Assembly (NCBI GenBank): GCA_944350345.1
Contig: CALVOP010000002.1
Span: 577 to 64,576, forward strand
Source: an uncultured Bacilli bacterium
Lineage (GTDB): Bacteria; Bacillota_I; Bacilli_A; RF39; UBA660
DNA length: 64,000 bases
Direction of reading: 5' to 3'
Positions within the stretch are counted from its first letter, which is position 1. Each line of letters opens with the position of its first letter. Shown piece after piece: positions 1 through 60,188 of the stretch. Made by a program: the position numbers and the translations under genes. A model generated the notes under the pieces. That model did not search any database, was not told the origin of the DNA, and worked only from the letters and a program-made list of their open reading frames with translations.

Positions 1-1860
1 GAGGGAGAACAACATGGAATAAGAACAAATAGCACTATAAAAACAGAGGTAGATAATTGGTATGCAAGTAATTTAAATGATTTTGATGGGTACATAAGTA
101 AGACTGCAATATATTGTAATGATAGAACGGTAGCGAGCGGAATCGTGTGGAATGAGTATTCATATGATATGCCTTATACAACATATACAAGATTAAACAT
201 AAATAAAACACCAACGTTTGTATGTAGTAATTTTGGTGATAGATTTACAGCAAGTGCGACAACAGGAAATGGAAAACTAACATATCCAATAGGACTAATC
301 ACAGCAGATGAGATAAGTTATGCAGGAGGATTATATGGAACAAATAATACAAGTTATTATATAGTTCAAAATGCATTAAGTGGATCAGACTACTGGTGGA
401 CAATGAGCCCAGCTCGCAATTATATTCTCTCTGCAGAAATCATGGTGGTTGGTGGAACTACATATACGGGATATCTATCTAGCAATATTGTCAACAGTGC
501 TCGTGGAGTACGCCCTGTAATTTCACTAAAGGCGTGTGTTCTTGCTTCTGGAGGAAGCGGGGCTGCAAGTGATCCGTATACAGTAAGTTTGGCTGAGGGA
601 TGTGCTAATGTAGAAAATGAGATATTAGAAGAAAATACAGTAAGAGTAAGTGCAACAACAAATGATACGAGTATGGCAACAGTAAACGCACCAAGTTCAG
701 TAATAATAAATAGTGGAAGCAGTTACACATTTATATTCACGGTAAATAGTGGATATGGGTATGACAGTGTAAGTGGATGTAATGGAACGTATGATACAAA
801 TACAAATAAATTAACAGTAAGTAATGTAACAGATAACACGACATGTACTGTAAACTTTAAGGCGCTAAATCCATTATATGCCCAAGTGTTAGAGGACAAC
901 CCAAATGTAAGTACAAGGACAGATTTTAGTACAATATTTACGACAAGTAATAATGGGAACACAATATATAAAGCGAGTGGACAAGATGGAAAAGATACAT
1001 ATTATTTTGCAGGGTCAGTAACAAATAACTATGTAAAATTTGCTAATAAGTACTGGAGAATAGTAAGAATAAATGAGGATAATAGTGTACGTTTAATATA
1101 TGCAGGTACAAGTGCAGATGATACAGCAGCATTTATAAGTACATCACAGGCATATAATTCAAGCTATAATAATAGTTCATATGTAGGGTATATGTATACT
1201 TTAAATGAGCAGTTCGGAACAGGGACAAATAGTAGTATAAAAACAGTTGTGGATAACTGGTACACAAGTAATTTAAGTAGTTATTCAGGGTATATAAGTA
1301 AGACTGCGATATACTGTAATGATAGAACGGTGGCAAGTGGATATACATGGAGTGCAACAGGAAGTACTACATTCTACTATGCTGCAAGAGAAAGACTATA
1401 CACAAATAAAGCACCGTCATTTGTATGTAGTAATGCAAATGATAGGTTTACAGCAAGTACGACAACAGGAAACGGAAAACTAACATATCCAATAGGATTA
1501 ATTACAATGGATGAGGTATACTACGCAGGAGGATATACATCAAATAACACAAGTTATTATATAGCCCAGAACGCATCTAGTGGAGCGTCATGGTGGTGGA
1601 CAATGAGTCCGTACAGCTGGGGTAGCTACTTCAGCAACGCTTACATGTTCTACGTGGGCGGGTCTTCTGGCACTGGCTGCTTGAGCAACTACAGCGTCGG
1701 CGGCACGATCGGCGTGCGTCCCGTAATTTCTCTGAAATCTTGTGTCCTTACTTCTGGAGGAAGCGGGACTGCAAGTGATCCTTATACAGTAAGTGTTTCT
1801 AGTGCGTGCTCAAGTGCGGAGAATACAGTTGGCGGTAATGATGTTGTGGTTGTAGGGTAA
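1..1860 (+). CDS. Repeat-containing secreted/surface protein, 5'-partial. The reading frame is open from position 1. It has large tandem modules of about 1.2 kb (about 400 aa) carrying a conserved WWTMSP ... GVRPVISLK ... SGGSG(A/T)ASDPYTVS motif block. This resembles the WLRSP/GVRPA module that is widespread in Firmicutes surface proteins.
   Basis: Frame 1 is open from nt 1, and the ORF-track Met at 145 is internal. Nt 25-120 are about 85-90% identical to nt 1226-1335. The protein shows two diverged copies of the same ~400 aa module. No LPXTG motif is present at the C-terminus. Confidence 0.6.
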   Translation, partial: EGEQHGIRTNSTIKTEVDNWYASNLNDFDGYISKTAIYCNDRTVASGIVWNEYSYDMPYTTYTRLNINKTPTFVCSNFGDRFTASATTGNGKLTYPIGLITADEISYAGGLYGTNNTSYYIVQNALSGSDYWWTMSPARNYILSAEIMVVGGTTYTGYLSSNIVNSARGVRPVISLKACVLASGGSGAASDPYTVSLAEGCANVENEILEENTVRVSATTNDTSMATVNAPSSVIINSGSSYTFIFTVNSGYGYDSVSGCNGTYDTNTNKLTVSNVTDNTTCTVNFKALNPLYAQVLEDNPNVSTRTDFSTIFTTSNNGNTIYKASGQDGKDTYYFAGSVTNNYVKFANKYWRIVRINEDNSVRLIYAGTSADDTAAFISTSQAYNSSYNNSSYVGYMYTLNEQFGTGTNSSIKTVVDNWYTSNLSSYSGYISKTAIYCNDRTVASGYTWSATGSTTFYYAARERLYTNKAPSFVCSNANDRFTASTTTGNGKLTYPIGLITMDEVYYAGGYTSNNTSYYIAQNASSGASWWWTMSPYSWGSYFSNAYMFYVGGSSGTGCLSNYSVGGTIGVRPVISLKSCVLTSGGSGTASDPYTVSVSSACSSAENTVGGNDVVVVG

Positions 1861-5440: not shown

Positions 5441-6379
5441 ATGAAAAATGAAATAATATTATTTGAAAATCAAAATGTTAAGTTAGAAGTAAATATGAAA
5501 GATGAAACAGTGTGGCTAAATCAAGAACAAATGGTTAAATTGTTTGAAAGAGACCAATCGGTAATAGCTAGACATATTAGAAATATTTTTAAAGAAGGAG
5601 AACTAATTAAAAAAAGTAATATGCAAAAAATGCATATTGCAAACTCGGATAAGCCAGTAATATTTTATAATTTAGATGTAATCATAAGTGTTGGTTATAG
5701 AGTAAAATCTAAAAATGGCATTATTTTTAGAAAATGGGCTAATAAAGTCTTAAAAGATTATTTAATTAAGGGTTATGCTGTTAATTATAAAAGATTAGAG
5801 TATCTTGAAAAAACGATTAAATTAATTGATATTGCAGGAAGAATTAGTGAAGATTTAAAGGGGAGTGAAGCTAAAGAAATTATTAAAGTTATTAATAATT
5901 ATTCAAATGCTTTTAATATGCTTGATGATTATGATTATAAAAGAATTATTAAGCCTAGTGGTAGAAAAGATAATAAAAAAATAACATATGATGAATGCTT
6001 AAATGTTATAAAAAGTTTGAAATATAAAATTAAAAGTAATTTATTTGCGCTTGAAAGGGAAAATGGATTGAACTCTATTATAAGGAATATTTATCAAAGT
6101 TTTGATGGAAAAGACTTGTATGCTTCTATAGAAGAAAAAGCTGCTAACTTTTTATATTTAATTACTAAAAATCATGTGTTTATTGATGGAAATAAGAGAA
6201 TTGCAGCAACTTTATTTATATATTTTTTAGAGTTTTATAATATTTTGTATGATGAAAGTGGACAAGTTATTGATAATAATACTTTAGTGGCTCTTACGTT
6301 ATTGATTGCTCAGTCTGATCCTAGGGAAAAAGAAGTTTTAATTGATTTAATAATGAATTTTTTAGTGAAAAATTTTTGA
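5441..6379 (+). CDS. RhuM-family protein with C-terminal Fic/Doc domain
   Basis: The N-terminus (MKNEIILFENQNVKLEVNMKDETVWLNQEQMVKLFERDQSVIARHIRNIFKEGEL) matches the Virulence_RhuM family. The C-terminus has HVFIDGNKRIAATL, which is a Doc-type Fic motif (HxFx[DN]GNKR). Confidence 0.8.
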   Translation: MKNEIILFENQNVKLEVNMKDETVWLNQEQMVKLFERDQSVIARHIRNIFKEGELIKKSNMQKMHIANSDKPVIFYNLDVIISVGYRVKSKNGIIFRKWANKVLKDYLIKGYAVNYKRLEYLEKTIKLIDIAGRISEDLKGSEAKEIIKVINNYSNAFNMLDDYDYKRIIKPSGRKDNKKITYDECLNVIKSLKYKIKSNLFALERENGLNSIIRNIYQSFDGKDLYASIEEKAANFLYLITKNHVFIDGNKRIAATLFIYFLEFYNILYDESGQVIDNNTLVALTLLIAQSDPREKEVLIDLIMNFLVKNF

Positions 6380-16198: not shown

Positions 16199-17074
16199 AT
16201 GGATATAATTAGAGAACTTTTTACTTTAACTCCTTATCAATTTGTAAATATTATTATTTTTTTATGGCTTTTTGCATTGTTCACTTTTGTTATTTTTATA
16301 TTTGTTACCGCTATTAGTTGGAAATTGTTTGAAAAAGCAGGAAAAAATGCTAAGGAGGCTTTTATACCAATTTATAATTTGACTGTGCTTTTCCAGATTG
16401 CTGAAATTCCTTCATACTACTTTCTTATTTTATTAATACCTGGTTTTAATATAATTTTGATTATATTTGTTGAATATAAACTTGCTAAACTTTTTAATGT
16501 TAGTAATGGATTTATGTGGGGAATGATTCTTTGTCCGGTTGTGTTTATTCCTATGTTAGCCCATGGTAATTTTGTTTATAAAAAGCCTGAGGAAGAAAGG
16601 TTTATAAGTGTAAGTGATAAAATGCCCACTGTTTTAAGTCAGGAACAAATTGATGCGATTAATCGTGAAGAAGTAAAAGATTCTGAAGTTGATAATGTTT
16701 TCAAATCAGAAATAAAACAAACGGAATACGTCTCTCCTTATAAATCTCAAGAAGTTAAATATAATCAAAATTTAATTGATGCCGTGGATACTAAACCTGA
16801 ATTTATTGAGCGTGTAGAACCTGTCAAAGCTGAGGATATAGAAGGAGAAAAAGATTCTGAAGTTGATAATGTTTTCAAATCAGAAATAAAACAAACGGAA
16901 TATGTTCCTCCTTATAAATCACAAAAGGTTCAAGTTAAGCAAAATTTGAATGACGTTGTTGATGTTAAGCCTGAATTTATAAAACGGGTAGAACCTGTTA
17001 AGGCTAAAGATATAGAAGAAGTAAAAAAAGCTAAATTTGTAGATGAAGATAAGATAGAAATAGTGGAATTGTAG
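16199..17074 (+). CDS. DUF5684-like polytopic membrane protein with a C-terminal tandem 58-aa repeat
   Basis: The N-terminus WKLFEKAGKNAKEAFIPIYNLTVLFQIAEIPSYYFLILLIPGFNIILIIF matches the DUF5684 signature. The C-terminus has two near-identical units (KDSEVDNVFKSEIKQTEYV.PYKSQ...). Confidence 0.6.
   Translation: MDIIRELFTLTPYQFVNIIIFLWLFALFTFVIFIFVTAISWKLFEKAGKNAKEAFIPIYNLTVLFQIAEIPSYYFLILLIPGFNIILIIFVEYKLAKLFNVSNGFMWGMILCPVVFIPMLAHGNFVYKKPEEERFISVSDKMPTVLSQEQIDAINREEVKDSEVDNVFKSEIKQTEYVSPYKSQEVKYNQNLIDAVDTKPEFIERVEPVKAEDIEGEKDSEVDNVFKSEIKQTEYVPPYKSQKVQVKQNLNDVVDVKPEFIKRVEPVKAKDIEEVKKAKFVDEDKIEIVEL
16673..17020 (+). repeat. Tandem direct repeat, 2 x 174 bp, inside the DUF5684 gene
   Basis: 16673-16846 compared with 16847-17020. 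The first ~75 nt are nearly identical and the rest is about 80% identical. Confidence 0.8.
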
Positions 17075-17130
17075 TTAACACATAACTTTACACACTATTT
17101 TTTTTGTTGTAAAATGGTTATGGTGATAGA

Positions 17131-19023
17131 ATGGCATACGATGATAAATCGATTAAAATCTTGGAGGGTTTAGAAGCTGTTAGAAAAAGACCTGGTATGT
17201 ACATTGGTAGTACTGATAAAAGGGGTCTACATCATTTGGTGTGGGAAATTGTCGATAATGCAGTAGATGAAGTTATTAATGGATTTGGTAAAAATATTTT
17301 GGTTAAGATAAACAAAGATGGGAGTATTACAGTAAAGGATGAGGGGCGTGGCGTTCCCGCTGGTATGCATGAAAGTGGTAAAAGTACTCCTGAAGTAATT
17401 TATACTGTTTTGCATGCTGGTGGTAAGTTTGAAACTGATGGCTATAAAGTAAGTGGCGGGCTTCATGGTGTTGGAGCGAGTGTTGTAAATGCTCTTAGTG
17501 AATGGATGAAGGTTGAGATTAGGCGTGATAAGTGTATCTATGAGATTACGTTTAAAGATGGTGGTAAAGTCGATTCGCCTCTTAAAAAAATAGGTACGAC
17601 TAAAGAAACTGGTACAACTGTTACTTTTAAGCCTGATGAAACTATTTTTAAAAATTGTAATTTTAGTTATACTACTATTTGTGAGAGAATGCAGGAAAGT
17701 GCTTTTTTGATCAGTGATTTGACTATTACTGTAATCGATGAAGAAGATGAAAAGGAAAGTGTGTTTCATTATGATAATGGACTTGCTTCTTATATAGATT
17801 ATATTAATGAAGATAAAAAGGCTTTACATAAAATTATAGAAATTCATGGTGTTAAAAATAATATAGTGGTAGATGTTGCTATGCAGTATACTGATGGATA
17901 TAATGAACAAATTATTTCTTTTGTTAATAATGTTAAAACTGTAGATGGCGGTTCTCATGAAGTTGGCTTTAAAACTGCTCTTACTAAGGCTTTTAATGAT
18001 TATATTAAAAAGTATAGTTTGAGTAAAACTGGTTTAGAAGGTAGTGATACTAGAGAAGGCATTAGTGCCGTTATTAGTCTAAAAATACCTGAAGAATTGC
18101 TTCAATTTGAAGGTCAAACTAAAGGTAAATTAGGCACTCCTGTTGCTAGAACTGTAGTTGAAAGTATTGTGTATGAAAAGTTGTCTTATTTTTTAGAAGA
18201 AAATAAGGAAACTGCAGGTGTTATAATGGCTAAGTCACTCAAGAGTAAACTTGCAAGGGAAGCCGCTCGTAAAGCTCGTGAAGAAGCTAGAAATGGTAAG
18301 GGTAGAAAAGAGAAAGAAAAGGTTTTACTTGGTAAGTTAACTCCAGCACAGAGTAAAGATGCTAAAAAGAATGAGTTGTTTTTGGTCGAAGGTAATTCTG
18401 CTGGTGGTACTGCTAAAAGTGGCCGCGATAAGAACTTTCAAGCTATTATGCCTTTAAGGGGTAAAGTTATTAATGCTGAGAAAGCTAGTACTAATGATTT
18501 GTTTAAAAATGAAGAGATTAATATGATAATCCATGCGATTGGTGCGGGTGTTGGCAGTGATTGTGACCCTAGTAGATCTAATTATAATAAGATAATTATT
18601 ATGAGTGATGCTGATGTGGATGGATCTCATATTCAAACTTTGCTTTTAACTTTCTTTTATAGACATATGAGACCGCTTATAGAAAATGGAATGATATTTA
18701 TTGCTGTTCCACCTCTTTATTTAGTTAAATATGGTAAGGAAAAGAGATATTTGATGAGTAATGAAGAGTTGAATGAGTTTAGGGAAAGTTATAAGGGTAA
18801 GTTTACTATTCAAAGGTATAAAGGATTGGGGGAGATGAATCCTGATCAGTTATGGGAAACCACAATGGACCCAGAAAATAGAAGTTTGATAAGGGTTAAT
18901 ATTTCTGATTTGGCTCTTGCAGAAAAGAGGGTTAATGTTCTTATGGGTGATAAAGTTGAACCTAGAAAAGAATGGATTAATGAGAATGTTGAATTTACTT
19001 TGGAAGATGATTATAGGAGTTAA
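17131..19023 (+). CDS. parE: DNA topoisomerase IV subunit B (ParE)
   Basis: 630 aa. It aligns along its whole length to B. subtilis ParE (ILEGLEAVRKRPGMYIGSTD.RGLHHLV.EIVDN...; C-terminal MGDKVEPRKEWI.ENV.F). It lacks the GyrB-specific insertion, and the partner gene is ParC-like. Confidence 0.85.
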   Translation: MAYDDKSIKILEGLEAVRKRPGMYIGSTDKRGLHHLVWEIVDNAVDEVINGFGKNILVKINKDGSITVKDEGRGVPAGMHESGKSTPEVIYTVLHAGGKFETDGYKVSGGLHGVGASVVNALSEWMKVEIRRDKCIYEITFKDGGKVDSPLKKIGTTKETGTTVTFKPDETIFKNCNFSYTTICERMQESAFLISDLTITVIDEEDEKESVFHYDNGLASYIDYINEDKKALHKIIEIHGVKNNIVVDVAMQYTDGYNEQIISFVNNVKTVDGGSHEVGFKTALTKAFNDYIKKYSLSKTGLEGSDTREGISAVISLKIPEELLQFEGQTKGKLGTPVARTVVESIVYEKLSYFLEENKETAGVIMAKSLKSKLAREAARKAREEARNGKGRKEKEKVLLGKLTPAQSKDAKKNELFLVEGNSAGGTAKSGRDKNFQAIMPLRGKVINAEKASTNDLFKNEEINMIIHAIGAGVGSDCDPSRSNYNKIIIMSDADVDGSHIQTLLLTFFYRHMRPLIENGMIFIAVPPLYLVKYGKEKRYLMSNEELNEFRESYKGKFTIQRYKGLGEMNPDQLWETTMDPENRSLIRVNISDLALAEKRVNVLMGDKVEPRKEWINENVEFTLEDDYRS

Positions 19024-19026
19024 TAT

Positions 19027-21534
19027 ATGAAGAATGATACTAATGAAGCGTTAAAAAGAATATATGACTTTGCACTTGAAGATATTATGGGGGATTGTTT
19101 TGGTAAATATGCTAAAGAGATAATTCAAGAACGTGCAATACCGGACGTTAGGGATGGATTAAAGCCTGTTCAAAGGAGAATTCTTTATGCGATGTATTTA
19201 GCTAATAATACTTGGGAAAAACCTTATGTTAAATGTGCGGCTACTGTTGGAGATGTGTTAGGTAAGTTTCACCCTCATGGAGATTCTTCTGTTTATGAAG
19301 CTATGGTTAGGATGAGTCAGTGGTGGAAACAAACTGCTCCTTTGATAAGTATTCATGGTAATAATGGTTCTTTAGATGGAGATCCTGCTGCCGCTTATCG
19401 TTATACTGAAGCTAGACTTTCTAAAATTAGTGAAGAACTTTTAAATGATTTGGATAAGGAAACTGTTTCTTGGGCACCTAACTTTGATGACCGTTTTCTT
19501 GAACCTACTGTTTTACCTGCAAATTTACCCAACTTACTTATAAATGGGACTACTGGTATAAGTGCTGGTTATGCTACTGATATTCCACCTCATAATATTG
19601 GTGAGATAATTGATGCAACTATTAAGAGAATTGATTCGCCTAATTGTAGACTTGATAGTATTCTTGAAATAGTTAAAGGTCCTGATTTTCCTACTGGTGG
19701 AATTGTAGAAGGTAAAGATGGTATAGTAGAAGCTTATAAAACTGGTAAAGGTAAAATTATCGTTAAAAGTAAGTATGAGTTTGTTAAGGAAAAGGGTAAA
19801 GAAAAAATAGTTATTACTGAAATACCTTTTGATACTTTAAAATCTAATATTATTAAGAGAATTGATGAATTTAGGATTGAAAAACGTTTGGATGGTATTA
19901 GTGAAGTAAGGGACGAGTCTGATAAGAATGATAATGTTAGAATTGTTATTGATTTAAAAAATGGTGCTGATAAAGATTTAATTATTAATTTTTTGCTTAA
20001 AAATAGTGACTTGCAAATTAATTATAATTTTAATATGGTTGCTATTGTTAATAAAAGACCTAAACAATTAGGAATTGTCGAGATAATTGATGCTTTTATC
20101 GCACATAGAAAAGAAGTTGTGACTAAAAGGTGTGAATTTGAACTTAAGAATAAAGAAGCTAGAAAACATATTGTCGAAGGTTTTATAAAAGCATTAGATA
20201 TTTTGGATGAAGTAATTAAAGTTATTAGAAAAAGTAAGAATAAGGCTGATGCTATTGTTAATTTAGTTAAAGAGTTTGATTTTACTAATTTGCAAGCTGA
20301 AGCTATTGTTATGATGCAATTATATAAGTTAACTAATACTGATGTTAATATTTTAAAAGAGGAGTTTTCTAAACTTGTTCAAGAAATTGCTTATTTGAGA
20401 AGTGTTTTGGATAATGAGGATAATTTGAAAAAATTAATTAAAGATGAACTTAGAGAAGTTAAAAAGAATTTTAATGTTCCAAGGAAAACTGTTATTAAAG
20501 ATGAGATTACTGAAATAGTGATTGATGAACTTGCTATGATTGATAGAAGTGATTTTGTTGTTATTATTAGTAAAAATGGTTATATTAAAAAAGTTAGTGT
20601 TAAATCTTATAATTCAACTGATGAGTTAAATCTTAGAGAAGAAGATTATGTTGAAAATATATATAAGATTAATAATTTGGATACTTTGCTTTTATTTACT
20701 AATTTAGGTAATTATCTTTATGTTCCTGTTAGGGATATTCCTGAAAGTAAGAATAAGGATTTGAAAGATCATATAAGCAGTTTTGTAAGTATTAGTGATG
20801 GTGAAAAGATTGTTAGAAGTTACGGTGTTAGGGATTTTGATGATTCTGTACTTACTTTGATAACTAAAAATGGTGTTATTAAGAATACTTTACTTAAGAG
20901 TTATAAAGTAACTAGGTATTCTAGACCTTTATCTGCAATTAGTTTGAAAAGTGGAGACGAACTTGTTAATGTATCTGTTAAAGATGGTAGTGAATACATT
21001 ATTGTTACTAAACGCGGTATGTGTTTGAAGTTTAATTCTAGTGAAATACCTGTTTTGGGCTTGAAAGCTAGTGGTGTAAAGGGAATTAATCTTAATGATG
21101 GTGATTATGTAATAAATGGTCAAAATATTTATGATGATGAACATTTAGCTATTTTTACTGATAATAAGACTGCTAAAAGGGTTAAATTAAGTGATATTCA
21201 AAAGTTTACACGTGCTAAAAAAGGAACTTCTATTATTAAAAGTCCTAAGTCTAAAACTTATCTTGTTATGAATGCTTATTTATCTAATAGTAAAACTGTA
21301 TTTGGTTTATTAAATGGTAATATTGAAAATATTAAAGCAAGTGAAATTAGTATTATGGATAAGTTTAGTACTGGAAGTAATATTACTAAAAAAAGTGTTT
21401 CTGAAACGTTTGTGGTTAATAAATTAAAAGATATTACTAAAAGGGATGTTAAAGATAAAATTGAGAGTGAAGAAAGGGAAAAGATTATTGAACCTTTAAC
21501 TATGAGTGATTTCTTTGATGAATTTAAAATATAG
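19027..21534 (+). CDS. parC: DNA topoisomerase IV subunit A (ParC)
   Basis: IQERAIPDVRDGLKPVQRRILYAMY is a ParC-type motif (Q rather than the H of GyrA). The GKFHPHGDSSVYEAMVRMSQ block matches the ParC consensus. Confidence 0.85.
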   Translation: MKNDTNEALKRIYDFALEDIMGDCFGKYAKEIIQERAIPDVRDGLKPVQRRILYAMYLANNTWEKPYVKCAATVGDVLGKFHPHGDSSVYEAMVRMSQWWKQTAPLISIHGNNGSLDGDPAAAYRYTEARLSKISEELLNDLDKETVSWAPNFDDRFLEPTVLPANLPNLLINGTTGISAGYATDIPPHNIGEIIDATIKRIDSPNCRLDSILEIVKGPDFPTGGIVEGKDGIVEAYKTGKGKIIVKSKYEFVKEKGKEKIVITEIPFDTLKSNIIKRIDEFRIEKRLDGISEVRDESDKNDNVRIVIDLKNGADKDLIINFLLKNSDLQINYNFNMVAIVNKRPKQLGIVEIIDAFIAHRKEVVTKRCEFELKNKEARKHIVEGFIKALDILDEVIKVIRKSKNKADAIVNLVKEFDFTNLQAEAIVMMQLYKLTNTDVNILKEEFSKLVQEIAYLRSVLDNEDNLKKLIKDELREVKKNFNVPRKTVIKDEITEIVIDELAMIDRSDFVVIISKNGYIKKVSVKSYNSTDELNLREEDYVENIYKINNLDTLLLFTNLGNYLYVPVRDIPESKNKDLKDHISSFVSISDGEKIVRSYGVRDFDDSVLTLITKNGVIKNTLLKSYKVTRYSRPLSAISLKSGDELVNVSVKDGSEYIIVTKRGMCLKFNSSEIPVLGLKASGVKGINLNDGDYVINGQNIYDDEHLAIFTDNKTAKRVKLSDIQKFTRAKKGTSIIKSPKSKTYLVMNAYLSNSKTVFGLLNGNIENIKASEISIMDKFSTGSNITKKSVSETFVVNKLKDITKRDVKDKIESEEREKIIEPLTMSDFFDEFKI

Positions 21535-25515: not shown

Positions 25516-26043
25516 ATGGGTAAGGTTTTTACGACAAAAAAAGGTTTTACTTTAGTAGAAATTATTATAGTTATAGCATTATTAGCGGTTTTAATTGTAA
25601 TTGCCATTCCTAATATTATTAAAGTTTATAACAATGCAAAATTAAATGCATTTTTGGATGAAGCCAAAGCAATTTATAAAAACATTGAAACTAGTTATAA
25701 TAGTGACTTTATGGAAGAGACTATTAAAGTAGATAGATATTGTGATAGTAGTGAAAGTTATATAAGAAAACTAAGATTAAAAAAGCCAGATGATATTTCT
25801 TATGATATAGAATTATCAGATAATGGAATTATCACAAAGTTCTATGTTGTAAATGATTCTTATCAGTTGCTACTTGGTGGTTCAAACGTTAAAATTAGTG
25901 ATATTATAGCTGAAAATGTGCAGGAATTAGAAAATTTTGAATATGATTGCCACGGTGTTTATGGAGTTTATTGTAATATTGAACGGCTTCCGTGTATAGT
26001 TGTGCCTTCATTTAATTATAGTGTGATTGATAGCAATTTATAG
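25516..26043 (+). CDS. Type IV pilin-like / pseudopilin protein (class III prepilin signal, KKG|FTLVE)
   Basis: MGKVFTTKKGFTLVEIIIVIALLAVL has G at -1, F at +1 and E at +5, followed by a hydrophobic helix. The C-terminus has 3 Cys (a D-region-like disulfide). Confidence 0.7.
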   Translation: MGKVFTTKKGFTLVEIIIVIALLAVLIVIAIPNIIKVYNNAKLNAFLDEAKAIYKNIETSYNSDFMEETIKVDRYCDSSESYIRKLRLKKPDDISYDIELSDNGIITKFYVVNDSYQLLLGGSNVKISDIIAENVQELENFEYDCHGVYGVYCNIERLPCIVVPSFNYSVIDSNL

Positions 26044-26054
26044 AAAGGATTTTT

Positions 26055-26456
26055 ATGAAAAAGGGTTTTACTTTGTTGGAATTACTGGCAGTTATAATTT
26101 TAATTGGTTTTTTGTTGACTATAGTTGTGCCTTCTACAATCAAAATTTTGGATAGTAGTATAGTAAATACCATGAAAATTCAAGAAGAAGAAGTTGAAAA
26201 TGCTGCTAAAATTTATTTGGAAGATTATTGTAAAACTCCTATTGATAGTACTAAAATTTGTACTTTAAACAAATCTGTTACTAATGGTATAGTATATTAT
26301 AATGGTGAAGTTAATTTAAATATATTAATTAATAATAATTATATTGAACGAGTATCGATTAGGAATGTAAATTGTGAAGGCCGAGTTATTATTACTAATA
26401 GCGAGCCTAAAGCATATTTGAAATGTGGGGATATATATACTACAGATGGATATTAA
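26055..26456 (+). CDS. Type IV pilin-like / pseudopilin protein (MKKG|FTLLELLAVIILIGF)
   Basis: It has a canonical prepilin peptidase motif and N-terminal helix. The C-terminus has the ...NCEG...KCGDIY Cys pair. Confidence 0.75.
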   Translation: MKKGFTLLELLAVIILIGFLLTIVVPSTIKILDSSIVNTMKIQEEEVENAAKIYLEDYCKTPIDSTKICTLNKSVTNGIVYYNGEVNLNILINNNYIERVSIRNVNCEGRVIITNSEPKAYLKCGDIYTTDGY

Positions 26457-58880: not shown

Positions 58881-60188
58881 ATGAAAAAGATAAGTTTGTT
58901 TTTTGCAGTTTTTTTAACAGCATTTCTTTTCTTAGGAACTGTAAATGCAAAAACTGTAAACGTTGCTAGCACTGACGATTTGAGTGCTAAAATAGGGGAA
59001 GCGGAGGAAGGAGATACTTTAGTATTAGAAGATGGCACTTATACTGGTGATATAACTATTGATAAGGCATTAACTATTGAAGGAACTAGTAAAGAAGATA
59101 CTATTATAGTTGGTCAAATTACTGTTACTGATAACTTTGATATGAAAAATGTTACTGTTATAGATGAACATGTAAATGGTACTTATAAAAATGTGATAAC
59201 TATTACTGAACCAGAACTTGTAGTTAATTTCGACAATGTAAACGTTAATGTTAAAGATTATGTTGCTGATAAAGACTATAAAACTGGTGTTTCTGGTATA
59301 AGCGCTGATGCTGATGCAAACGGTACTAAATTAACTATTACTAATAGTAAAGTTAATGCTACTTATGGTATTTATGTAAAAAGTGAAAAAAATACTATTA
59401 AAATTGAATCATCTATAGTTTCTGGATGGGCAGCATTAGATATTACTACTAGTGAAGGCGTATTACAAAATAATAATAAAGTAACTGTTAAGAATAGTAC
59501 TTTATATGGTACTAGTTATGTTCCTAAAGATAGCTACAATAATTATGGTGTTGTAGTTATTGGAAGTCAGAAAGATTTAAGTTTAACTATAACTGATAGT
59601 ACTATTAAAAATAATATTGTTACTGAAAATAGAATTGATTTAATATATTTTGGTGATTATTATGAAGATAGTGAAACTTCTATTATTACATTAAATAATG
59701 TTAAATTAGAAAATAATGATACTAATGGTGAAAGTACTAAAGTTAATTTTGCAACAGAAGGAAATGCACTTGGTGGACAAATATTTATAATTGATGAAAA
59801 GACAAATTTAGATATGACTACAGATGCTGATAAGGTAGGGTCTACAGGTCATGTATTTAATCTATCATCAATTGATGGTGTTGCTTCAATGATCGTACCA
59901 GATAAGTTTGTTGTTACAGCTGATGCTTTAGAAGTTGGTACAGTAGAAGGTTATGAATTTAAAGGTTGGTATACTGATGCTGAATACAAAAATGAATTTT
60001 TAGCCGGTACTGAGATAACTGAAGATACTACAATATATGCATATTTTGTAGAAATAGTTGAAGATACAACACCTGAGGTTAATAATCCTCAAACAGGAGA
60101 TAACGTTTTAGTATTCTTCTTAGTAGGTCTTATTTCATTAATAGGCTTTGTTGGTGGAAGCGTATATTTCTTAAAACATCAAAATTAA
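58881..60188 (+). CDS. Secreted right-handed beta-helix-like surface protein with a C-terminal NPQTG sortase (class B-type) sorting signal
   Basis: The signal peptide is MKKISLFFAVFLTAFLFLGTVNA. It has many N.T/V.V...T periodic beta-helix-like repeats. The C-terminus is NPQTGDNVLVFFLVGLISLIGFVGGSVYFLKHQN (motif, TM, positive tail). A terminator follows at 60226-60250. Confidence 0.65.
   Translation: MKKISLFFAVFLTAFLFLGTVNAKTVNVASTDDLSAKIGEAEEGDTLVLEDGTYTGDITIDKALTIEGTSKEDTIIVGQITVTDNFDMKNVTVIDEHVNGTYKNVITITEPELVVNFDNVNVNVKDYVADKDYKTGVSGISADADANGTKLTITNSKVNATYGIYVKSEKNTIKIESSIVSGWAALDITTSEGVLQNNNKVTVKNSTLYGTSYVPKDSYNNYGVVVIGSQKDLSLTITDSTIKNNIVTENRIDLIYFGDYYEDSETSIITLNNVKLENNDTNGESTKVNFATEGNALGGQIFIIDEKTNLDMTTDADKVGSTGHVFNLSSIDGVASMIVPDKFVVTADALEVGTVEGYEFKGWYTDAEYKNEFLAGTEITEDTTIYAYFVEIVEDTTPEVNNPQTGDNVLVFFLVGLISLIGFVGGSVYFLKHQN

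Follow-up and report, generated by a model that had tools for sequence, protein, structure and literature searches.

A GC-rich patch with the footprint of a diversity-generating retroelement variable region in a two-module lectin-like gene of an uncultured Bacilli bacterium

Described systems and the present locus

The domain DUF6273 has been reported as a C-type-lectin-like (CLec) target domain of diversity-generating retroelements (DGRs), with the variable region (VR) at its C-terminus, and the targets of this family described from human-gut phages include tentaclins, the Mtd-like proteins of nd4/nd12, and those of the Faecalibacterium prophages Lelie/CP11/Roos/Pioen and of Toutatisvirus (PMC10743442, PMC11792537, bioRxiv 10.1101/2024.10.15.618418). 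Here we analyse a gene of the same domain family that opens a 64,000-nt stretch of DNA from an uncultured Bacilli bacterium (contig CALVOP010000002.1, positions 577 to 64,576; the whole of this stretch is referred to below as the window). The 3′ part of the gene (1-1860, forward strand, 619 codons, cut by the window edge) contains a GC-rich patch at 1612-1722, and we consider, with a probability of about 0.87, that this patch is a DGR VR written by adenine-mutagenic retrohoming from a template repeat (TR) located elsewhere.

The likeness to the gut-phage targets extends to the position of the VR at the C-terminal end of DUF6273, to the gut habitat and to the capacity of one DGR to serve more than one target. 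The targets studied here differ, however, in being chromosomal genes of a spore-forming Bacillota bacterium that lie beside housekeeping genes; homologous targets have femAB, hrcA, polC, lon or recD2 as a neighbour, which makes at least five different positions on the chromosome, and no cassette adjoins any target examined. A further difference is that homologues of the window gene have two DUF6273 modules and up to two VRs per protein; many of them carry two VRs, and one metagenome-assembled genome (MAG) in GTDB has at least six.

Among more distant systems, that of Treponema denticola comprises TvpA and remote targets paralogous to it (PDB 2y3c; PMC4891356). TvpA is a member of the FGE-sulfatase-type CLec family and lies beside its reverse transcriptase (RT) cassette; sequence identity between TvpA and the window protein is only 13%. 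The Mtd/Brt/Avd system of Bordetella phage BPP-1 (PMC3240598) resembles the present one in the AAC-rich logic of its template, in the diversified CLec ligand-binding face and, as far as the candidate elements of the window go, in a VR whose 3′ end is GC-rich and has an inverted repeat behind it. In BPP-1, however, these elements consist of (GC)14 plus a 21-bp initiation of mutagenic homing (IMH) sequence and an 8-bp GC-rich stem with a GRNA loop, whereas their counterparts in the window, a 12-nt GC-rich element and a candidate 5-bp A/T-rich stem with a 3-nt loop, are much weaker. Outside DGRs, DUF6273 is found at the N-terminus of the Thomasclavelia ramosa IgA protease (PDB 9qa6; PMC12402451), where an M64 peptidase is fused to it and no DGR diversification has been reported; the window protein, in the part seen, is without a peptidase domain. 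Both the mechanism and the domain family are already known, as are multi-VR and remote-target DGRs, and the arrangement described below works like known DGR systems. What is specific to this case is that the targets are chromosomal and embedded among housekeeping genes, that they are built of tandem lectin-like modules, that active-looking and decayed copies occur in one gene, and that the cassette was absent from all loci and collections searched.

A compositional island with a variable-region footprint

The gene fragment encodes two DUF6273/C-type-lectin-like modules with a beta-sandwich domain between them. At the DNA level the modules (about 400 aa each) are direct repeats, spaced by 1200-1206 nt and 76-85% identical, but 411-504 and 1611-1710, precisely within these otherwise repeated modules, have no detectable DNA similarity to each other. 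When GC content was measured in sliding 110-nt intervals across the 64 kb (overall GC 27.7%; mean 0.277, SD 0.065), the maximum of 0.618 began at 1614, lying about 5.3 SD above the mean and exceeding the tRNA genes, and values of 0.50 or more were reached at only four other places, namely at two clusters of tRNA genes, at a conserved amidase motif and in the stretch of module 1 that corresponds to the patch. A preliminary description of this DNA, made from the sequence alone, had placed a sharply bounded GC-rich island at about 1618-1735. Such an island does exist, and nowhere else in the window does GC rise as high; its limits had been roughly right, the exact ones being 1612-1722. Within these limits GC is 60.4%, against a gene background of 37% rather than the roughly 30% given earlier, A makes up 16% of residues compared with 37.5% in the rest of the gene, and the AT skew flips sign across the island.

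The codons of the island follow a usage of their own. Those ending in C account for 24/37 in the island and 48/582 elsewhere in the gene (Fisher p ~1e-15); Tyr is encoded by TAC in 5/5 cases against 10/48 elsewhere, Gly by GGC in 6/8 against 1/48, and Ser by AGC in 5/7 against 8/74. Amino acid composition cannot produce such a synonymous switch to C-ending codons and is ruled out as an explanation for the raised GC. The module-1 counterpart (412-516, forward strand, 44% GC) does use native A/T-ending codons, as the preliminary description had said, but the peptide it encodes is unrelated to that of the patch. Between the peptides of the two modules, ARNYILSAEIMVVGGTTYTGYLSSNIVNSARGVRP and YSWGSYFSNAYMFYVGGSSGTGCLSNYSVGGTIGVRP, which differ in length by two residues, no more than about 13 of 37 positions agree, or about one-third, so that the patch cannot be called synonymously recoded.

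We compared homologous-locus DNA from ENA, JGI, GTDB and Logan assemblies (loci are numbered with L and proteins with P), and 11 non-redundant GC-rich copies of the patch were used for the counts that follow. Relatives numbered in the thousands in a protein search, and many of the best 120, with identities of 64-79%, come from human-gut metagenomes and uncultured Bacilli MAGs. The protein alignment is near-invariant except at scattered positions in the patch, in both modules (SPxxWxSxxSxAxVFxVGGSSxTGxLxxxxVxxxxGVRPVISLK). In the DNA, the mutagenised VR core comprises 33 codons, mostly NNC (1612-1710, forward strand), and its mean pairwise diversity at codon positions 1, 2 and 3 is 0.43, 0.35 and 0.10, as against 0.09, 0.11 and 0.21 in the upstream flank and 0.10, 0.06 and 0.20 in the downstream flank. 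Counted as variable sites at the three codon positions, the corresponding figures are 24/33, 23/33 and 12/33 for the core, 16/66, 19/66 and 36/66 upstream, and 11/27, 5/27 and 18/27 downstream.

The sites that vary are those that bear adenine. All adenine-bearing sites of the core are variable, none being invariant, the non-A sites of the scaffold are fixed, and every variable core site shows A among its observed bases, which is the A-to-N variation that marks a DGR VR. The scaffold codons of the core are adenine-free (TGG, GCT, TTC, GTG GGC GGG TCT TCT, GGC, TTG, GTC), the scaffold of the whole patch ending additionally in GGC GTG CGT CCC, and the NNC run of the patch reads TAC AGC ... TAC TTC AGC AAC ... 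GGC ... TGC ... AGC AAC TAC AGC GTC GGC GGC ... ATC; A is depleted to 0.18 within the core. Directly outside it invariant adenines resume, in ACA ATG AGT upstream and GTA ATT ... AAA downstream. The 5′ flank TGGTGGACAATGAGTCCG (WWTMSP; 1594-1611, forward strand) is the same in 11/11 copies, third positions included, and as its adenines never vary it evidently lies upstream of the mutagenised stretch. Scaffold plus about 35 nt downstream are identical in the window and in the syntenic loci L006 and L026, although the flanks are only 82-83% identical; such identity across species amid diverged flanks fits repeated overwriting from a conserved template. The composition follows as well: the TR core obtained by setting the variable sites to adenine would contain 40 A in 111 nt at 49% GC, and full randomisation of those adenines predicts 67% GC, compared with the 60% observed with 18 A remaining, so that the GC island is quantitatively accounted for.

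The same codon-position pattern bears on the suggestion, made in the preliminary description, that the patch was imported from a high-GC homologue. Gene conversion or horizontal import of this kind, with ordinary diversifying selection then acting on a binding loop, would suit the sharp boundaries and foreign composition of the island and the fact that the paralogous module differs in sequence at precisely this place. Yet it is the third codon positions that are best conserved, while positions 1 and 2 carry most of the variation, a confinement not expected from a foreign gene fragment; many paralogues and species have one and the same scaffold, in frame; adenine is specifically depleted, and a homologue has an adenine-rich template (see below). 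Nor did searches of the GTDB, metagenome, viral and phage collections reveal any high-GC donor. We therefore regard import as very improbable. The alternative suggestion of a recombination cassette for surface variation comes closest, in so far as a lectin-like protein, probably secreted, has its hypervariable part here; the pattern of variation, however, points to RNA-templated, adenine-specific mutagenic retrohoming by a DGR and not to recombination between cassettes.

An assembly chimera or an engineered insert had also been considered. The island lies near the window edge and genes of this type are often found at contig ends, as might be expected of an artefact, but the patch is in frame, has conserved coding flanks and forms part of a confidently folded domain, and ENA, JGI, GTDB and Logan assemblies, made independently in different projects and with different assemblers, contain this scaffold in frame as well; the chance of an artefact is negligible. 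A mechanism already known thus explains the compositional anomaly, and neither misassembly nor foreign DNA need be suspected any longer.

Template repeats, static copies and the source of the proposed retroelement

A protein search with the translated hypothetical TR matched two short open reading frames (ORFs) that are genuine template repeats. The Logan contig L012 (969 nt) carries the 3′ end of a DUF6273 gene with 45-47% identity to each of the two modules in the window (E 3e-33), and its TR begins 135 nt after the stop codon of this target. VR and TR of L012 differ at 16 positions in 118 nt, and 16/16 of these mismatches fall at TR adenines, of which 38 are available; by chance such a pattern would have a probability of about 0.32^16, or 1e-8. 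L013, from another run, has a TR identical to that of L012 and a different VR, with 19/24 mismatches at adenines, and a second such template is present in L014 and L015. All of these TR-bearing contigs (L012-L015) are shorter than 1 kb.

Our working model is that the TR and the DGR reverse transcriptase sit elsewhere in the genome or on an associated mobile element, and that the TR has AAC at every variable codon. The predicted TR would read approximately CCG AAC AAC TGG AAT AGC AAC AAC AGC AAC GCT AAC ATG TTC AAC GTA GGC GGG TCT TCT AAC ACT GGC AAC TTG AAC AAC AAC AAC GTC AAC AAC ACG AAC GGC GTG CGT CCC. TR RNA would be copied into cDNA with random nucleotides placed opposite template adenines, and the cDNA would then take the place of the VR as far as the GC-rich element (1711-1722). 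Constant residues would be held by adenine-free codons and variable residues would arise from AAC codons converted to NNC; the AAC-derived NNC codons, together with progressive loss of adenine, would leave a G/C-rich, A-poor island with a fixed third-position C. With the VR forming the C-terminal strands of a secreted DUF6273 module, the product would be a diversified ligand-binding surface. Module 1 and some paralogues would have lost target competence, or would never have had it, and would show native AT-rich codons.

Two elements at the 3′ end of the patch may take part in target recognition. The GC-rich 12 nt that end the patch, GGCGTGCGTCCC (1711-1722, forward strand), are identical in 9/11 GC-rich copies, with single synonymous changes in L005-588 and L003+11024, and by analogy with BPP-1 (PMC3240598) we take them as a candidate IMH-like boundary at which template-derived sequence would end. 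The static counterpart of this element in module 1 (505-516, GGAGTACGCCCT) is changed at synonymous sites. Three nucleotides beyond the GC-rich element lies the inverted repeat ATTTC-TCT-GAAAT (1726-1738, forward strand), which is intact in 9/11 GC-rich copies and broken both in the static window copy (520-532, ATTTCACTAAAGG) and in module 1 of L004; it might conceivably be a target-recognition hairpin.

The static copies serve as an internal control. Copies that lack the scaffold (module 1 of the window, of L004 and of L026, and P0077) have 34-44% GC and A/T-ending codons, and static copies of this AT-rich kind are those of L004, L016 and L026. The single-module paralogue P0077 (L016-L025) has one protein sequence on all of 11 contigs, which come from 10 samples belonging to several cohorts and show 0-5 silent differences, and its invariance makes it a natural negative control for diversification. 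In module 1 of the window the 3′ element is synonymously altered (GGA GTA CGC CCT GTA ATT TCA CTA AAG), a change that would fit loss of target competence. To judge from these features, one gene pairs one active-looking VR with one decayed VR.

A number of results weigh against the interpretation of the patch as a DGR VR. A search of the 64-kb window for the TR (blastn, word size 7) returned only the gene itself and the module-1 flank, and no RT-like ORF of at least 200 aa with a Y/F-x-DD box was present in the window or the homologous loci. Pfam detected no RVT domain in 25 window ORFs, the remaining ORFs being covered by the motif scan only. Neither TR nor RT was present in some 200 kb of homologous loci, among them the 10 kb on either side of the syntenic orthologue, and the GTDB MAG with at least six such VRs shows no TR. 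Three scans of viral contigs (IMG/VR) gave no match, a result obtained there for the L012 TR also, and deposited phages gave none. When TR peptides were searched in three frames, the forward frame found the TRs of the relatives only and the two open reverse frames found nothing. In addition, adenine specificity in this lineage is deduced from comparison of VRs with each other and not from a TR-VR alignment; the stem of the candidate hairpin is only 5 bp, with marginal folding z-scores (-2.0, -1.9 and +1.2 for the hairpin region in three active-looking copies); and L003 and L005 strains have an identical VR2, so that diversification would not appear to be rapid everywhere.

Pattern searches of larger collections gave a similar picture. 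The strict inferred-TR pattern had 0 matches in GTDB genomes and metagenomes, and a loose scaffold pattern found 4 VRs from one MAG and no TR in GTDB, and 2 VRs, one chance match in a 53% GC organism and no TR in metagenomes. Around seven target homologues, two of them without a record, the context was in every case one of housekeeping genes, with no RT within 10 kb. Exact-protein look-ups of FemAB and enolase for DNA 5′ of the window returned nothing or one 3.5-kb Logan contig. VR-bearing genes are often at contig ends (L002, L005-L008), and this, together with the tiny TR contigs, suggests that assemblies are broken at VR/TR repeats and that binning then loses the cassette. If so, the DGR cassettes of such lineages are probably missing from MAGs systematically.

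The lack of TR and RT in the collections and loci searched would also be expected if the VR were a fossil, written by a DGR in the past and now, TR and RT having been lost, a slowly decaying coding segment. Window module 1 and several paralogues do look decayed, with T-ending or A-ending codons, and phages that keep DUF6273 targets without a DGR are known from the literature. But scaffold, third-position Cs and 3′ flank of the patch are still perfect in a 28% GC genome, and a perfect scaffold amid flanks that have diverged by about 18% argues for recent overwriting; moreover, the TR contigs of relatives are all shorter than 1 kb, so that absence from MAGs is to be expected from assembly breakage. 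We consider a fossil VR improbable. For the DGR reading we infer instead that this lineage has a TR and an RT of its own, located elsewhere, and that the VR is probably still being rewritten.

A particular form of this arrangement would have TR and RT on a mobile element (phage, plasmid or integrative and conjugative element) that is shared by several species of the uncultured gut Bacilli lineage and acts in trans on at least five host genes for surface proteins that lie among housekeeping genes, with up to two loops rewritten in each protein. Such an element would account for the identity of the scaffold despite about 18% flank divergence and for the absence of the cassette from MAGs and long contigs; we hold it to be a somewhat unlikely possibility.

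For AT-rich genomes these results provide a practical rule, namely that a DGR VR can be recognised by an A-poor island of about 100 nt with C in third positions where a lectin-like domain ends. The rule holds with the retroelement out of view, and AT-rich patches in paralogues are then the copies that left the system.

The target protein and its genomic surroundings

Module 1 matches Pfam DUF6273 (PF19789) with 29.3 bits (cutoff 23.5; E=9e-7) over profile positions 126-171. Module 2 itself has no PF19789 match; outside the VR it is a 76-85% DNA repeat of module 1, and many homologues carry a precomputed PF19789 match. An AlphaFold2 model of the 619-aa fragment has a pLDDT of 90.5 and shows VR residues 538-570 as the beta strands that end module 2, which places the patch at the C-terminal end of a DUF6273/C-type-lectin-like domain, the location known for VRs of DGR targets. 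The syntenic orthologue (L026, P0016) is 923 aa long, and its N-terminal segment resembles a signal peptide followed by a camelysin/TasA-like domain; from this N-terminal sequence and a weak Pfam match in paralogues the target protein is probably secreted. The genes appear to form a secreted two-module lectin-like family diversified at many loci in an uncultured human-gut Bacilli lineage, and their products are candidates for recognition of host glycans, phages or neighbouring cells.

At its 3′ end (1825-1860) the target gene runs 11 codons beyond the stop of the homologues, whose TAA is ACA here; the homologues end in ...SSAEN* and the window protein in ...SSAENTVGGNDVVVVG*. Between the convergent target and FemAB genes lies a hairpin, ACACAAC/GTTGTGT (7 bp), followed by a T run (1880-1902), which is conserved in the syntenic locus L006 and is likely to be the terminator of the target gene. 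A consensus terminator scan did not call this hairpin, which has only 2 G-C pairs.

The window is otherwise ordinary chromosome of a spore-forming member of the Bacillota, with genes for FemAB, enolase, RlmN, PrkC, MurT/GatD, gyrBA, FtsAZ, EzrA, FtsK, PNPase, SpoIVA, NusA and IF-2. A second target gene elsewhere in the window was sought by tblastn and rejected. Upstream of ftsA/ftsZ, at 25516-26456, are two adjacent pilin-like genes with KKGFTL(V/L)E N-terminal methylation-type motifs; in the relatives L004 and L008 the pilin cluster directly precedes a DGR target gene, an arrangement not seen in the window. A putative surface protein at 58881-60188 has a Listeria-Bacteroides repeat (Flg_new) that is found in the DGR-target paralogues P0045 and P0047 also.

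A RhuM/Fic gene lies at 5441-6379. In L026 an extra block of about 4 kb (16489-19738; RhuM fragment, QueC, His_Phos and DUF6270) stands between the enolase operon and the RhuM/Fic gene, and the comparison of the two loci identifies this block as a variable islet. The DUF5684 gene (16199-17074) contains a 174-nt tandem duplication with 83% identity at 16667-17014. Finally, a large serine recombinase with Resolvase, Recombinase and Zn-ribbon domains is found beside ORFs without a Pfam match (51641-53191, reverse strand, and 54037-56339, forward strand), and this may be an integrated element.

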